NCBI RefSeq assembly: GCF_056746865.1
Contig: NZ_CM163382.1
DNA: 64,000 bases
Direction: 5' to 3' (one strand)
The position numbers and the translations under genes are program-made. Position 1 is the first letter of the stretch, and the number at the start of each line of letters is the position of its first letter. The notes beneath the pieces are model-generated. The model saw only the letters and a list, made by a program, of their open reading frames with translations. It did not search any database and had not been told where the DNA came from. Of this stretch, positions 6,052 to 43,216 are shown in pieces.

Positions 6052-8225
<2,174 letters not shown>

Positions 8226-36005: not shown

Positions 36006-36080
36006 GTCCTCTTAGTTAAATGGATATAACGAGCCCCTCCTAAGGGCTAATTGCAGGTTCGATTCCTGCAGGGGACACCA
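36006..36080 (+). tRNA. argW: tRNA-Arg (anticodon CCU)
   Basis: GTCCTCTTAGTTAAATGGATATAACGAGCCCCTCCTAAGGGCTAATTGCAGGTTCGATTCCTGCAGGGGACACCA: 75 nt, cloverleaf-compatible, CCU anticodon in the loop, 3-prime CCA. Confidence 0.9.
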
Positions 36081-36521: not shown

Positions 36522-37769
36522 CTATATTGCTGAAGGTACAGGCGTTTCCATAACTATTTGCTCGCGTTTTTTACTCAGGAAGAAAATGCCAAATAGCAAC
36601 ATCAGGCAGACAATACCCGAAATTGCGAAGAAAACTGTCTGGTAGCCTGCGTGGTCAAAGAGTATCCCAGTCGGCGTTGAAAGCAGCACAATCCCAAGCG
36701 AACTGGCAATTTGAAAACCAATCAGAAAGATCGTCGACGACAGGCGCTTATCAAAGTTTGCCACGCTGTATTTGAAGACGGATATGACACAAAGTGGAAC
36801 CTCAATGGCATGTAACAGCTTCACTAATGAAATAATCCAGGGGTTAACGAACAACGCGCAGGAAAGGATACGCAACGCCATAATCACAACACCGATAAGT
36901 AATGCATTTTTTGGCCCTACCCGATTCACAAAGAAAGGAATAATCGCCATGCACAGCGCTTCGAGTACCACCTGGAATGAGTTGAGATAACCATACAGGC
37001 GCGTTCCTACATCGTGTGATTCGAATAAACCTGCATAAAAGACAGGAAAGAGTTGTTGATCAAAAATGTTATAGAAAGACCACGTCCCCACAATAAATAT
37101 GACAAAAACCCAGAAGTTTCGATCCTTGAAAACTGCGATAAAATCCTCTTTTTTTACCCCTCCCGCATCCGCCGCTACACACTGGTGACCCTTATCTTTA
37201 AAACGCATGTTGATCATCATAAATACAGCGCCAAATAGCGAGACCAGCCAGAAGTTGATATGGGGACTGATACTAAAAAATATGCCGGCAAAGAACGCGC
37301 CAATAGCATAGCCAAAAGATCCCCAGGCGCGCGCTGTTCCATATTCGAAATGAAAATTTCGCGCCATTTTTTCAGTGAAGCTGTCAAGCAAACCACATCC
37401 CGCCAGATACCCCAGGCCAAAAAAGAGCGCCCCCAGAATTAGACCTACAGAAAAATTGCTTTGCAGTAACGGTTCATAAACGTAAATCATAAACGGTCCG
37501 GTCAAGACCAGAATGAAACTCATACACCAGATGAGCGGTTTCTTCAGACCGAGTTTATCCTGAACGATGCCGTAGAACATCATAAATAGAATGCTGGTAA
37601 ACTGGTTGACCGAATAAAGTGTACCTAATTCCGTCCCTGTTAATCCTAGATGTCCTTTCAGCCAAATAGCGTATAACGACCACCACAGCGACCAGGAAAT
37701 AAAAAAGAGAAATGAGTAACTGGATGCAAAACGATAGTACGCATTTCTGAATGGAATATTCAGTGCCAT
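36522..37769 (-). CDS. cscB: Sucrose:H+ symporter (oligosaccharide:H+ symporter family, MFS) CscB
   Basis: 415-aa 12-TM ORF MALNIPFRNAYYRFASSYSFLFFISWSLWWSLYAIWLKGHLGL, LacY-like sucrose permease. Confidence 0.88.
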   Translation of the reverse strand: MALNIPFRNAYYRFASSYSFLFFISWSLWWSLYAIWLKGHLGLTGTELGTLYSVNQFTSILFMMFYGIVQDKLGLKKPLIWCMSFILVLTGPFMIYVYEPLLQSNFSVGLILGALFFGLGYLAGCGLLDSFTEKMARNFHFEYGTARAWGSFGYAIGAFFAGIFFSISPHINFWLVSLFGAVFMMINMRFKDKGHQCVAADAGGVKKEDFIAVFKDRNFWVFVIFIVGTWSFYNIFDQQLFPVFYAGLFESHDVGTRLYGYLNSFQVVLEALCMAIIPFFVNRVGPKNALLIGVVIMALRILSCALFVNPWIISLVKLLHAIEVPLCVISVFKYSVANFDKRLSSTIFLIGFQIASSLGIVLLSTPTGILFDHAGYQTVFFAISGIVCLMLLFGIFFLSKKREQIVMETPVPSAI

Positions 37770-37830: not shown

Positions 37831-38754
37831 TTACTTCTCACTTTCCAGTTCTTGTCGACATGGCAGCGCTGTCATTGCCCCTTTCGCTGTTACTGCAAGC
37901 GCTCCGCAACGTTGAGCGAGATCGATAATTCGTCGCATTTCTCTCTCATCTGTAGATAATCCCGAAGAGGACAGACCTGTGAGTAACCCGGCAACGAACG
38001 CATCTCCCGCCCCAGTGCTATCGACACAATTCACAGACATTCCAGCAAAATGGTGGACTTGTCCTCGATAACAGACCACCACCCCTTCTGCACCTTTAGT
38101 CACCAACAGCATGGCGATCTCATAATCTTTTGCCAGGGCGCATATATCCCGATCGTTCTGTGTTTTTCCACTGATAAGTCGCCATTCTTCTTCCGAGAGC
38201 TTGACGACATCCGCCAGTTGTAGCGCCTGCCGCAAACACAAGCGGAGCAAATGCTCGTCTTGCCATAGATCTTCACGAATATTGGGATCGAAGCTGACAA
38301 AACCTCCGGCATGCCGGATCGCCGTCATCGCAGTAAATGCGCTGGTACGCGAAGGCTCGGCAGACAACGCAATTGAACAGAGATGTAACCATTCGCCATG
38401 TCGCCAGCAGGGCAAGTCTGTCGTCTCTAAAAAAAGATCGGCACTGGGGCGGACCATAAACGTAAATGAACGTTCTCCTTGATCGTTCAGATCGACAAGC
38501 ACCGTGGATGTCCGGTGCCATTCATCTTGCTTCAGATACGTGATATCGACACCCTCAGTTAGCAGCGTTCTTTGCATTAACGCACCAAAAGGATCATCAC
38601 CGACCCGACCTATAAACCCACTTGTTCCGCCTAATCTGGCGATTCCCACCGCAACGTTAGCTGGCGCGCCGCCAGGACAAGGCAGTAGCCGCCCGTCTGA
38701 TTCTGGCAAGAGATCTACGACCGCATCCCCTAAAACCCATACTTTGGCTGACAT
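37831..38754 (-). CDS. cscK: Fructokinase CscK (ribokinase/pfkB family)
   Basis: 307-aa ORF MSAKVWVLGDAVVDLLPE with pfkB signature (DSTGAGDAFVAGLL). Confidence 0.9.
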   Translation of the reverse strand: MSAKVWVLGDAVVDLLPESDGRLLPCPGGAPANVAVGIARLGGTSGFIGRVGDDPFGALMQRTLLTEGVDITYLKQDEWHRTSTVLVDLNDQGERSFTFMVRPSADLFLETTDLPCWRHGEWLHLCSIALSAEPSRTSAFTAMTAIRHAGGFVSFDPNIREDLWQDEHLLRLCLRQALQLADVVKLSEEEWRLISGKTQNDRDICALAKDYEIAMLLVTKGAEGVVVCYRGQVHHFAGMSVNCVDSTGAGDAFVAGLLTGLSSSGLSTDEREMRRIIDLAQRCGALAVTAKGAMTALPCRQELESEK

Positions 38755-38858
38755 TTTTTTCCCTTAAATTCATCTGACTTACGCATAGTGATAAACCTCT
38801 TTTTCGCAAAATCGTCATGGATTTACTAAAACATGCATATTCGATCACAAAACATCAT

Positions 38859-38936
38859 AGTTAACGTTAACATTTGTGATATTCATCGCATTTATGAAAG
38901 TAAGTGACTTTATTTTTATAAAAGTTAACGTTAACA
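38859..38936. promoter_or_regulatory. Divergent cscK/cscA promoter region with two identical palindromic 14-mers (candidate CscR operators)
   Basis: AGTTAACGTTAACA occurs at 38859-38872 and 38923-38936; each is itself palindromic (GTTAAC x2); LacI-family repressors bind such dyads. Confidence 0.5.
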
Positions 38937-38960
38937 ATTCACCAAATTTGCTTAACCAGG

Positions 38961-40403
38961 ATGATTAAAATGACGCAATCTCGATTGCATGCGGCGCAAA
39001 ACGCACTAGCAAAACTTCACGAGCGCCGAGGTAACACTTTCTATCCCCATTTTCACCTCGCGCCTCCTGCCGGGTGGATGAACGATCCAAACGGCCTGAT
39101 CTGGTTTAACGATCGTTATCACGCGTTTTATCAACATCACCCGATGAGCGAACACTGGGGGCCAATGCACTGGGGACATGCCACCAGCGACGATATGATC
39201 CACTGGCAGCATGAGCCTATTGCGCTAGCGCCAGGAGACGAGAATGACAAAGACGGATGTTTTTCAGGTAGTGCTGTCGATGACAATGGTGTCCTCTCAC
39301 TTATCTACACCGGACACGTCTGGCTCGATAGTGAAGGTAATGACGATGCAATTCGCGAAGTACAATGTCTGGCTACCAGTCGGGATGGTATTCATTTCGA
39401 GAAACAGGGTGTGATCCTCACTCCACCAGAAGGAATCATGCACTTCCGCGATCCTAAAGTGTGGCGTGAAGCCGACACATGGTGGATGGTAGTCGGGGCG
39501 AAAGACCCAGGCAACACGGGGCAGATCCTGCTTTATCGCGGCAGTTCATTGCGTGAATGGACTTTCGATCGCGTACTGGCCCACGCTGATGCGGGTGAAA
39601 GCTATATGTGGGAATGTCCGGACTTTTTCAGCCTTGGCGATCAGCATTATCTGATGTTTTCCCCGCAGGGAATGAATGCCGAGGGATACAGTTATCGAAA
39701 TCGCTTTCAAAGTGGCGTAATACCCGGAATGTGGTCGCCAGGACGACTTTTTGCACAATCCGGGCATTTTACTGAACTTGATAACGGGCATGACTTTTAT
39801 GCACCACAAAGCTTTGTAGCGAAGGATGGTCGGCGTATTGTTATCGGCTGGATGGATATGTGGGAATCGCCAATGCCCTCAAAACGTGAAGGCTGGGCAG
39901 GCTGCATGACGCTGGCGCGCGAGCTATCAGAGAGCAATGGCAAACTCCTACAACGCCCGGTACACGAAGCTGAGTCGTTACGCCAGCAGCATCAATCTAT
40001 CTCTCCCCGCACAATCAGCAATAAATATGTTTTGCAGGAAAACGCGCAAGCAGTTGAGATTCAGTTGCAGTGGGAGCTGAAGAACAGTGATGCCGAACAT
40101 TACGGATTACAACTCGGCACAGGAATGCGGCTGTATATTGATAACCAATCTGAGCGACTTGTTTTGTGGCGATATTACCCACACGAGAATTTAGACGGCT
40201 ACCGTAGTATTCCCCTCCCGCAGGGTGACACGCTCGCCCTAAGGATATTTATCGATACATCATCCGTGGAAGTATTTATTAACGACGGGGAAACGGTGAT
40301 GAGTAGCCGAATCTATCCGCAGCCAGAAGAACGGGAACTGTCGCTCTATGCCTCCCACGGAGTGGCTGTGCTGCAACATGGAGCACTCTGGCAACTGGGT
40401 TAA
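38961..40403 (+). CDS. cscA: Sucrose-6-phosphate hydrolase / invertase CscA (GH32)
   Basis: 480-aa ORF with GH32 motifs (WMNDPNG, RDP, EC); alternative start at ATG 38970 (MTQSRLHAA) gives 477 aa. Confidence 0.9.
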   Translation: MIKMTQSRLHAAQNALAKLHERRGNTFYPHFHLAPPAGWMNDPNGLIWFNDRYHAFYQHHPMSEHWGPMHWGHATSDDMIHWQHEPIALAPGDENDKDGCFSGSAVDDNGVLSLIYTGHVWLDSEGNDDAIREVQCLATSRDGIHFEKQGVILTPPEGIMHFRDPKVWREADTWWMVVGAKDPGNTGQILLYRGSSLREWTFDRVLAHADAGESYMWECPDFFSLGDQHYLMFSPQGMNAEGYSYRNRFQSGVIPGMWSPGRLFAQSGHFTELDNGHDFYAPQSFVAKDGRRIVIGWMDMWESPMPSKREGWAGCMTLARELSESNGKLLQRPVHEAESLRQQHQSISPRTISNKYVLQENAQAVEIQLQWELKNSDAEHYGLQLGTGMRLYIDNQSERLVLWRYYPHENLDGYRSIPLPQGDTLALRIFIDTSSVEVFINDGETVMSSRIYPQPEERELSLYASHGVAVLQHGALWQLG

Positions 40404-40410
40404 CATAATA

Positions 40411-41406
40411 TCAGGTGGAACAACGGATCAACAGCGGGCAAGGGATCCGCGTCACTCTTCCCCCTTCACGACCTTCAATAATATGCAATGCAGCTTCCCG
40501 CCCGATAATGTCATGTGGAAGCTGAATTGTGGTCAGCGGCGGTAAAAACAGATGCCCGACGCCAACCAGATTATCAAAGCCCATTACGGCGACATCCTGC
40601 GGGATACGTACCCCCTTCGCCAGGAGAACCTGATAAGCGACAAAGGCTGCGCGATCGTTACCACATATCAGAACATCAAAATCTGGTTTGCCAGATTTGA
40701 AGTGGTCATTGAGTAAACTTGCGAGATCGGTGTAGTGATCATCACCTGTTGCCATGTGAAATTGTTTCACCTCAGCCAGATCTCGTCCAGCATCACGCCA
40801 GGCCTGCTCAAATCCCTGCCGACGATACCCTGTTGCCAACGCACTTTCCGGTAGCCAGAAGCATAACGGTTGACGATAGCCCGCCGCGAGCAAATGCTGT
40901 GTTGATTCATATTGTGCAGTGTAATCATCAGGGATATAACTGGGTAACGCTGGGTCATCCGCAACACAGTTCGCCAATACAATATTTTCACCATACAGAG
41001 ACTCAGGCAGCGTGATATGTCGCAGCCCCATTGTAGTATAGATAATGCCATCCGGACGGTGGGCAAGCAGCTGACGTGCCGCGCGGGCAGCGTCATCTTC
41101 AGAAAAAATATTGATTAAAAAACTATTCCAGCCGAACTCGCTGGCGGTTTGCTCAATGGCAAGCAGAATATCAACAGAGAAAGGAGTGGTAGCCGTGTCC
41201 TGCGCCAGCACGGCGAGAGTCGACGGCTTACGTCCTTGAGCGCGCATCTTACGGGCGGAAAGATCAGGAACATAATTCAGGGTCTGGATTGCCTGCAATA
41301 CGCGGTTACGCGTTGCAGGACGCACAGATTCTGCATTATGCATCACCCGGGAGACTGTCATCATCGACACTCCCGCCAGGCGTGCGACATCCTTTAATGA
41401 AGCCAT
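40411..41406 (-). CDS. cscR: LacI-family sucrose operon repressor CscR
   Basis: ORF 40411..41604 contains MASLKDVARLAGVSMMTVSRVMHN (LacI HTH); start trimmed to ATG 41406 (331 aa). Confidence 0.88.
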   Translation of the reverse strand: MASLKDVARLAGVSMMTVSRVMHNAESVRPATRNRVLQAIQTLNYVPDLSARKMRAQGRKPSTLAVLAQDTATTPFSVDILLAIEQTASEFGWNSFLINIFSEDDAARAARQLLAHRPDGIIYTTMGLRHITLPESLYGENIVLANCVADDPALPSYIPDDYTAQYESTQHLLAAGYRQPLCFWLPESALATGYRRQGFEQAWRDAGRDLAEVKQFHMATGDDHYTDLASLLNDHFKSGKPDFDVLICGNDRAAFVAYQVLLAKGVRIPQDVAVMGFDNLVGVGHLFLPPLTTIQLPHDIIGREAALHIIEGREGGRVTRIPCPLLIRCST

Positions 41407-41636: not shown

Positions 41637-41867
41637 ATATGGATCATTGTGCTGGCGCTGTATCCCGACATCAGCCCGGAAATTTTTACGATTGATATCG
41701 GTTCAAGTGCAATTGGCTGCACGATCGTTACGGACTCGCTTTTCTGGCTGGTGAAGCAATATTGCGGCGCTACGCTCAATGAAACATTTAAATACTATAC
41801 GACAGCGACATTTATCGCTTCAGTCGTCGCTCTGGCGGGCACATTCCTGCTGTCATTTATCATCTAA
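41637..41867 (+). pseudogene. dsdX: 3-prime remnant of D-serine permease gene dsdX (GntP family), truncated by the csc insertion
   Basis: Frame open from 41637 with no upstream coding continuation; hydrophobic C-terminal sequence ...[49 protein letters not shown]... matches my recollection of the DsdX C-terminus; directly upstream of dsdA. Confidence 0.65.
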
Positions 41868-41884: not shown

Positions 41885-43216
41885 ATGGAAAACGCTAAAA
41901 TGAATTCGCTCATCGCCCAGTATCCGTTGGTAAAGGATCTGGTTGCTCTTCAAGAAACCACCTGGTTTAATCCTGGCACGACCTCATTGGCTGAAGGTTT
42001 ACCTTATGTTGGCCTGACCGAACAGGATGTTCAGGACGCCCATGCGCGCTTATCCCGTTTTGCACCCTATCTGGCAAAAGCATTTCCTGAAACTGCTGCT
42101 ACTGGGGGGATTATTGAATCAGAACTGGTTGCCATTCCGGCTATGCAAAAACGGCTGGAAAAGGAATATCAACAACCGATCAGCGGGCAACTGCTACTGA
42201 AAAAAGATAGCCATTTGCCCATTTCCGGCTCCATAAAAGCACGCGGCGGGATTTATGAAGTCCTGGCACATGCAGAAAAACTGGCTCTGGAAGCGGGGTT
42301 GCTGACGCTTGAAGATGACTACAGCAAACTGCTTTCTCCGGAGTTTAAACAGTTCTTTAGCCAATACAGCATTGCTGTGGGCTCAACCGGAAATCTGGGG
42401 TTATCAATCGGCATTATGAGCGCCCGCATTGGCTTTAAGGTGACAGTACATATGTCTGCTGATGCCCGGGCATGGAAAAAAGCGAAACTGCGCAGCCATG
42501 GCGTTACGGTCGTGGAATATGAGCAAGATTATGGTGTTGCAGTCGAGGAAGGACGTAAAGCAGCGCAGTCTGACCCGAACTGTTTCTTTATTGATGACGA
42601 GAATTCCCGCACGTTGTTCCTTGGGTATTCCGTCGCAGGCCAGCGTCTTAAAGCGCAATTTGCCGAGCAAGGTCGTATCGTCGATGCTGATAACCCTCTG
42701 TTTGTCTATCTGCCGTGTGGTGTTGGCGGTGGTCCTGGTGGCGTCGCATTCGGACTTAAACTGGCGTTTGGCGATCATGTTCACTGCTTTTTTGCCGAAC
42801 CAACGCACTCCCCTTGTATGTTGTTAGGCGTCCATACTGGATTACACGATCAGATTTCTGTTCAGGATATTGGTATCGACAACCTTACCGCAGCGGATGG
42901 CCTTGCAGTTGGTCGCGCATCAGGCTTTGTCGGGCGGGCAATGGAGCGTCTACTGGATGGCTTCTATACCCTTAGCGATCAAACCATGTATGACATGCTT
43001 GGCTGGCTGGCGCAGGAAGAAGGCATTCGTCTTGAACCTTCGGCACTGGCGGGTATGGCCGGGCCTCAGCGCGTGTGCGCATCAGTAAGTTACCAACAGA
43101 TGCACGGTTTCAGCGCAGAACAACTGCGTAATGCCACTCATCTGGTGTGGGCGACGGGAGGTGGAATGGTGCCGGAAGAAGAGATGGAGCAATATCTGGC
43201 AAAAGGCCGTTCATAA
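41885..43216 (+). CDS. dsdA: D-serine dehydratase (ammonia-lyase)
   Basis: 443-aa [34 protein letters not shown] with PLP-lysine region (SGSIKARGG). Confidence 0.95.

Follow-up and report, generated by a model that had tools for sequence, protein, structure and literature searches.

The predicted CscR operator pair of the Escherichia coli csc control region is conserved beside cscR orthologues in 22 genera

The 215-bp spacer between the cscK start (38754, minus strand) and the cscA start (38970, plus strand) of the analysed window (64,000 nucleotides of contig NZ_CM163382.1, assembly GCF_056746865.1) contains two identical 14-mers, AGTTAACGTTAACA, which are the published E. coli CscR operator pair as carried by another E. 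coli strain. Neither the boxes nor the CscR assignment nor the CRP site between them is new: all were published in 2002, with re-examination in 2013, 2014 and 2024, and for this reason the discovery value of the observation is small. What the comparison of csc loci adds is breadth: conservation of the predicted operators is widened from five species to 22 genera, and a 62-64-bp spacing together with a sandwich of the upstream operator (O1) between two putative CRP sites (CRP2-O1-CRP1) is conserved, unidirectional promoters included. Both boxes are very probably CscR operators that act by the general repression mechanism set out below. The basis for this in the present data is the palindrome, the cognate gene, co-conservation with cscR orthologues, the fixed spacing and the fixed CRP offsets; from the literature it is CscR repression, the operator up-mutation and cAMP dependence (PMC11251922, PMC3938415). 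The transcription start positions, the assignment of each box to a promoter and the action of O1 are what we infer from these.

Genes were identified from open reading frames and family scans, and the start of cscR was set from its translation. The genes and regulatory features of the locus are as follows.

36522-37769, minus strand: cscB, sucrose:H+ symporter (oligosaccharide MFS permease), 415 aa (TIGR00882, 593 bits; RefSeq)
37831-38754, minus strand: cscK, fructokinase, 307 aa (NF006957, 507 bits; RefSeq annotation)
38788-38793, minus strand: candidate cscKB -10, TATCAC, suggested by a conserved TGATAA
38834-38849, unstranded: CRP2, weaker putative CRP-like site, TGCATATTCGATCACA, 7/10 consensus bases with the right half perfect, centre 38841.5
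38859-38872, unstranded: O1, predicted upstream (cscK-side) CscR operator, AGTTAACGTTAACA, core 38860-38871, from exact match and conservation
38875-38890, unstranded: CRP1, putative cAMP-CRP site, TGTGATATTCATCGCA, 9/10 consensus bases, centre 38882.5
38911-38916, plus strand: candidate cscA -10, TATTTT, suggested by a conserved CTTTATyTT
38923-38936, unstranded: O2, predicted cscA-proximal CscR operator, identical 14-mer, core 38924-38935
38970-40403, plus strand: cscA, sucrose hydrolase (invertase, GH32), 477 aa (TIGR01322, 481 bits; RefSeq)
40411-41406, minus strand: cscR, LacI/GalR-family repressor, 331 aa (full-length LacI-family match), the presumed binder of O1 and O2

An identical region in E. 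coli 118UI carried the same RefSeq gene calls, and the regulatory features were absent from its annotation. Of 5426 complete E. coli genomes, 2663 contained the 301 bp around the boxes, in each case on the chromosome.

AGTTAACGTTAACA was found exactly at both positions, with a start-to-start distance of 64 bp, which is about 6.1 turns at 10.5 bp per turn. An earlier reading of the window from its letters (the sequence-only reading) had described two identical 14-mers in the cscK/cscA divergent region, 64 bp or about six helical turns apart, and was right on both counts. It had also described each 14-mer as a direct duplication of GTTAAC and as palindromic; the duplication is literally true, but the palindrome is the inner 12-mer, GTTAACGTTAAC, and not the whole 14-mer. 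GTTAACGTTAAC is a perfect palindrome with a CG centre, since the minus-strand match of AGTTAACGTTAACA differs at the two outer bases only, and a 12-bp CG-centred palindrome is the more informative description of the boxes. A search of the window for the AGTTAACGTTAACA pattern with up to 2 mismatches returned these two places only, each on both strands; the 4 strand-matches compare with 0.36 expected, and none of 100 shuffles reached 4. The centre of O1, at 38865.5, is 104 bp away from the cscA ATG and 111 bp from that of cscK, and the centre of O2 lies 40 bp upstream of the cscA ATG. These distances fall within the range typical of LacI-family operators, 30-140 bp upstream of the regulated start codon (PMC4052901). 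The form of GTTAACGTTAAC, an even-length palindrome with a central CG, is that of LacI/GalR-family operators, in which 1173 of 1303 regulators (about 90%) have motifs of this kind (PMC4052901).

No further CscR box better than 2 mismatches was present in the window, the region upstream of cscR included. With up to 3 mismatches, the csc intergenic spacers gave, besides O1 and O2, only one 3-mismatch window, which overlapped O2, and no box was found upstream of cscR; one 3-mismatch match lay inside the cscR coding region (40869-40880). The E. coli gene arrangement showed no sign of cscR autoregulation. The cognate regulator gene itself is in the same locus, two genes away. Residues 3-318 of CscR aligned to residues 5-313 of LacI, with 13 residues remaining after, and the alignment left the 331-aa CscR without a counterpart of the LacI tetramerisation helix (340-357). 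Among 73 CscR orthologues, the recognition-helix core MTVSR and the hinge YVPD.SA.K.R were conserved in at least 90% of distinct sequences. The closest solved chain to CscR was 6NDI_A (E 1e-113, full length). PDB 6NDI chain A, 334 aa long, is a 'Transcriptional regulator' that has been solved but not described.

As cited in PMC11251922 and PMC3938415, Jahreis et al. 2002 (J Bacteriol 184:5307) described two 12-bp inverted repeats as putative CscR operators, an up-mutation in one of the two, and cAMP-CRP sites in csc. The operators lie on either side of the -35/-10, and the downstream operator overlaps the transcription start (PMC11251922, Front Microbiol 2024), and a putative Crp-cAMP site adjoins the cscA -35 (PMC11251922); operators and putative Crp site were conserved in five species (PMC11251922, alignment in Fig. 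7). The operator mutation was later re-isolated and permits growth on low sucrose (PMC3938415, PLoS One 2014). Loss of cscR led to derepression and a cyaA mutant was unable to use sucrose (PMC3938415), and two cAMP-CrpA sites in a bidirectional csc promoter are cited in the same paper from Sabri 2013. In the passages that recount the operator mutation, the affected operon is cscA according to PMC11251922 whereas it is cscKB according to PMC3938415. The present boxes and CRP1 agree with the two 12-bp inverted repeats and the Crp site as these are described in PMC11251922, a comparison that the sequence-only reading had named as a check. A full-text literature search with the 12-mer brought up nothing but cloning or primer sequences that were unrelated, and further searching of the literature contributed nothing more. 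No report of direct CscR-DNA binding at csc was found in the secondary literature searched, PMC11251922 and PMC3938415 included.

Conservation of the boxes was assessed by a CscR scan of one genome per species, which gave 80 loci in which the csc genes were placed by tblastn and the 12-mer was searched. Box pairs with at most 1 mismatch to GTTAACGTTAAC were found in intergenic DNA beside cscR orthologues at 57 loci of 22 genera; as CscR peptide patterns were used to collect the loci, the set is biased towards regulators whose DNA-binding domains are alike. The cscR orthologues at these loci shared 48-96% identity. Poor conservation in other csc loci would have counted against the sequence-only reading; its proposal that the boxes are plausible CscR operators is instead in line with both the published model and this distribution. 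The pair occurred in at least four gene orders among the 57 loci, and a proximal box was present before the downstream sucrose gene in all of them. Divergent cscA and cscK flanked it in Escherichia, Citrobacter, Pluralibacter, Proteus and Gilliamella, and divergent cscA and cscB in Rosenbergiella. The divergent partner was cscR itself, opposite cscBA, in Klebsiella, Enterobacter, Raoultella, Serratia, Kosakonia, Erwinia, Buttiauxella and one Providencia locus (L062), and opposite cscA in Yersinia, Silvania and Aeromonas. In Pectobacterium, Samsonia, Rahnella and Tatumella the pair was followed by cscBA or cscA in a unidirectional arrangement that lacked a divergent sugar gene. At the unidirectional loci L008, L025, L060, L006 and L061, the next upstream gene was unrelated or convergent.

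Information content, calculated from 22 representative loci with <85% identity to one another, was 1.98 bits per position for the O1 core and 1.84 for the O2 core, compared with 1.43 for CRP1, 0.97 for CRP2 (flank 0.23) and 0.23-0.57 for the flanks. The boxes are therefore the most conserved bases of the csc control region. O1 was invariant in Escherichia, Citrobacter, Pluralibacter and five E. coli alleles, and every SNP among these five alleles lay outside the boxes.

The spacing of the boxes was 64 bp at 37 loci, 63 bp at 6 loci and 62 bp at 1 locus, with 68-69 bp at 9 loci (Proteus) and 57 bp at 4 loci (Gilliamella). A spacing of 62-64 bp (5.9-6.1 turns) was thus kept in 20 of the 22 genera, and one of 63-64 bp in 19 of them, while in Proteus (6.5 turns) and Gilliamella (5.4 turns) the boxes are about half a turn out of phase. 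Between genera, the 32-bp stretch from CRP1 to O2 showed a mean identity of only 41%, and O2 lay anywhere from 24 to 207 bp from the start codon, yet the spacing stayed fixed; the distance from O1 to O2 is thus under constraint.

The sequence-only reading had placed a CRP-like half-site between the boxes, at about 38875-38890. Its location was confirmed, but the site is a complete 16-bp core, TGTGA-TATTCA-TCGCA, with 1 mismatch to TGTGA-N6-TCACA, and not a half-site. It begins 3 bp past O1. On its own CRP1 is insignificant in the window (4 matches against 1.64 expected), and we accepted it because of its conservation across genera, the single-sequence statistics being unremarkable. Nor does CRP1 appear to be the only element of its kind: the weaker CRP2 lies beyond O1, on its cscK side, with its centre 41 bp from that of CRP1, and O1 sits in the 19-bp gap between the two. 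In all loci with 63- or 64-bp spacing, CRP1 was found at an offset of +15 from the start of the O1 core (≤3 mismatches) and CRP2 at an offset of -26 (≤4 mismatches). CRP2 was conserved also in loci without a divergent gene; it was near-perfect in Rahnella, with 1 mismatch, and free of mismatches in Providencia L062. In Gilliamella CRP1 was shifted by 1 bp, and the Proteus and Tatumella csc loci had no recognisable CRP sites at these offsets. E. coli N96 (L084) carried a perfect CRP1 core, TGTGATATTAATCACA, and the allele in the window has the right half TCGCA; this difference points to possible strain-to-strain variation in catabolite control of csc.

A consensus promoter and terminator scan of 38700-39020 gave no sites and no sigma-70 match, and the starts were taken from candidate hexamers; the promoter positions given here (-41.5, -58.5 and -61.5) are for these reasons ones that we infer. 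The motif CTTTATyTT was conserved in the alignment of Escherichia, Citrobacter and Pluralibacter, and the candidate cscA -10 within it would imply a start near 38923/38924, with CRP1 at about -41.5, O2 at about +1 to +12 and the centre of O1 at about -58.5. This geometry agrees with the description in PMC11251922. On the cscK side, TGATAA (38789-38794) was invariant in 7 sequences of 3 genera amid variable sequence, and the candidate cscKB -10 there would imply a start near 38780 and place CRP2 at about -61.5. A common -10 at the class II position was also sought in the Klebsiella/Enterobacter group, where no convincing hexamer was found.

Taken together, these features suggest a conserved control module of five elements: CRP2, O1, CRP1, the core promoter and O2. 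Without inducer, one CscR dimer would bind each 12-bp CG-centred palindrome. At O2, which would lie at or just downstream of the cscA start, CscR would block RNA polymerase directly. O1, about 58 bp upstream of that start, would be wedged between the two cAMP-CRP sites, and CscR bound there would be placed to disturb CRP binding or CRP-polymerase contacts for cscA and the divergent cscKB alike, CRP1 (about -41.5) serving cscA and CRP2 (about -61.5) serving cscKB. At high sucrose CscR would leave the DNA. Transcription would then still require cAMP-CRP, and hence remain subject to catabolite repression.

The naming used in the literature suggests a simpler arrangement of one operator per promoter, in which O1 would repress only cscKB and O2 only cscA, the two boxes being functionally unlinked, and in E. 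coli the boxes do sit between two divergent operons. We regard it as somewhat unlikely. Unidirectional cscBA operons of Pectobacterium, Samsonia and Rahnella have the pair in front of them, spaced at 63-64 bp and accompanied by both CRP sites, and unidirectional cscA of Tatumella has the pair alone, without recognisable CRP sites; in the Klebsiella/Enterobacter group it is cscR itself that serves as divergent partner. Furthermore, if the cscK start at about 38780 is right, O1 would lie near -85, too far for simple occlusion of cscKB. The retention of the pair before unidirectional operons argues that the two boxes form the module of one promoter. The sequence-only reading, in which the pair represses both divergent promoters, appears sound in so far as the boxes are operators, but the unidirectional operons favour a dual-operator module of a single promoter. 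That reading had further raised, with caution, DNA looping between the boxes. In a lac-type loop a CscR oligomer would bridge O1 and O2 with CRP1 inside, the spacing keeping the helical phase. This would account for the 63-64 bp (6.0-6.1 turns) retained in 19 of 22 genera despite 41% spacer identity, and the order operator-CRP-promoter-operator mirrors lac O3-CAP-O1. CscR, however, has no LacI C-terminal tetramerisation helix, the boxes of Proteus and Gilliamella are about half a turn out of phase, and a 64-bp loop is energetically costly; fixed promoter parts, with CRP1 abutting O1 and O2 at the start, would explain the constant spacing equally well. Looping of this type thus found no support and we consider it decidedly unlikely, although a GalR-like bridging of the boxes may occur.

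The boxes might also be bound by another protein (Cra/FruR, or ScrR in scr strains), or be a non-functional duplication of an HpaI-site palindrome. Several LacI-family proteins recognise similar nnAACGTTnn cores, and the literature search had yielded no direct binding report for CscR. Against this, the boxes accompany cscR orthologues whatever the gene arrangement, no other bases of the region are as strongly conserved, the shuffle statistics and information content exclude a chance origin, and loss of cscR and mutation of the operator share one derepressed phenotype (PMC3938415). Cra/FruR or another LacI-family binder was rejected on the co-occurrence with cscR and the published genetics, and these readings as a group are close to negligible in probability. 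A further proposal goes beyond operators acting as two independent steric blocks: the CRP2-O1-CRP1 sandwich and the 62-64-bp spacing would be the mark of a hitherto undescribed nucleoprotein complex in which CscR and CRP cooperate or compete, and which could stand in their place. Such a complex could take the form of CytR-like anti-activation on a strong operator, or of a two-dimer bridge assisted by the CRP bend; it is unlikely on present evidence. Even so, the spacing, the retention before unidirectional operons and the sandwich make CscR-CRP interplay at O1 a concrete and cheap hypothesis. The csc regulon serves the engineering of sucrose-utilising production strains, and it would be useful to treat the boxes and both CRP sites as one rigid conserved module when redesigning the csc promoter.

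Compared with known systems, the csc regulon of E. coli EC3132 and E. coli W is the same locus, with the same two 12-bp inverted repeats and the same Crp site, and shows no essential difference from that described here. The scrY promoter of pUR400 and Klebsiella resembles csc in having a LacI-family sucrose repressor, ScrR, and two inverted repeats that flank the -35/-10; the repeats are of 14 bp, the start is covered by the downstream one, and there is a CRP site upstream (Cowan 1991; Jahreis & Lengeler 1993; both as cited in PMC11251922). The scr CRP site is poorly conserved between species, in contrast to the well conserved csc site (PMC11251922; loci analysed here). ScrR belongs to a different orthologous group from CscR, and the scr pathway is that of PTS sucrose-6-phosphate. 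The lac O3-CAP-O1 region shares with csc a LacI-family repressor, an auxiliary operator upstream of CRP and a main operator at the start. It differs in its 92-bp spacing, CRP at -61.5 and a looping tetramer, as against 64 bp, CRP probably at -41.5 and no tetramerisation helix in csc; because CscR lacks the tetramerisation domain, csc falls outside the LacI tetramer loop. In the gal OE-CRP-OI region, a dimeric LacI-family repressor (GalR) likewise acts from an operator upstream of the CRP site. In gal, the centre of this upstream operator is some 19 bp away from a CRP site at -41.5, a distance comparable to the 17 bp from O1 to CRP1 in csc. The second gal operator, however, is intragenic (+53.5, 113-bp spacing) and looping needs HU, whereas the second csc operator is at the start. 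CytR promoters (deoP2, cdd) have a LacI-family repressor site between two CRP sites, as is the case for O1, where this arrangement is conserved across genera; O2 has CRP sites on neither side. The CRP centres of CytR promoters are about 52 bp apart, compared with 41 bp in csc. CytR sites are weak, variably spaced and dependent on CRP contacts, whereas the CscR boxes are perfect palindromes and O1, far from degenerate, is perfect, conserved and identical to O2. As the operator is strong and perfect, csc falls outside CytR-type control.

Several loci departed from the common arrangement. Seven Providencia loci (L011-L016 and L063) had a single perfect CscR box between cscA and cscK (e.g. L011:9549-9789), and about 45 bp from it toward cscA a conserved inverted repeat, TAACGC-N2-GCGTTA. 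No second box at about 64 bp was found in these Providencia-type loci within 3 mismatches, a different inverted repeat being present there; this repeat may represent either a CscR-like site in spread-out form or a site for some other regulator. Gilliamella (L028, L032, L035, L036, L043, L064 and L070) and the Orbaceae loci L033 and L045 had an extra, tandem pair of near-perfect boxes, 14-20 bp apart, between cscB and cscR at about 7700-7850. In L028, L032, L043 and L064 this tandem pair was additional to the 57-bp-spaced pair upstream of cscA. L035, L036 and L070 had one box only upstream of cscA, and L033 and L045 had no cscA match.

The csc island of the window is bounded by the tRNA-Arg(CCT) gene argW (36006-36080) on one side and by a 72-aa dsdX remnant followed by dsdA on the other, which is the arrangement described in the literature. 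The order between 33949 and 43216 was mlaA, an FNT-family transporter, argW, cscBKAR, the C-terminal dsdX remnant (41649-41867) and an intact dsdA (41885-43216). At the argW hotspot, the csc genes are in place of dsdC and most of dsdX. In E. coli MDP9-27, the match was limited to the first 46 bp of cscA (NZ_CP146515.1:245781-245826), and an oligosaccharide MFS transporter directly adjoined cscA, which indicates a different, possibly Klebsiella-type, csc arrangement in that strain.
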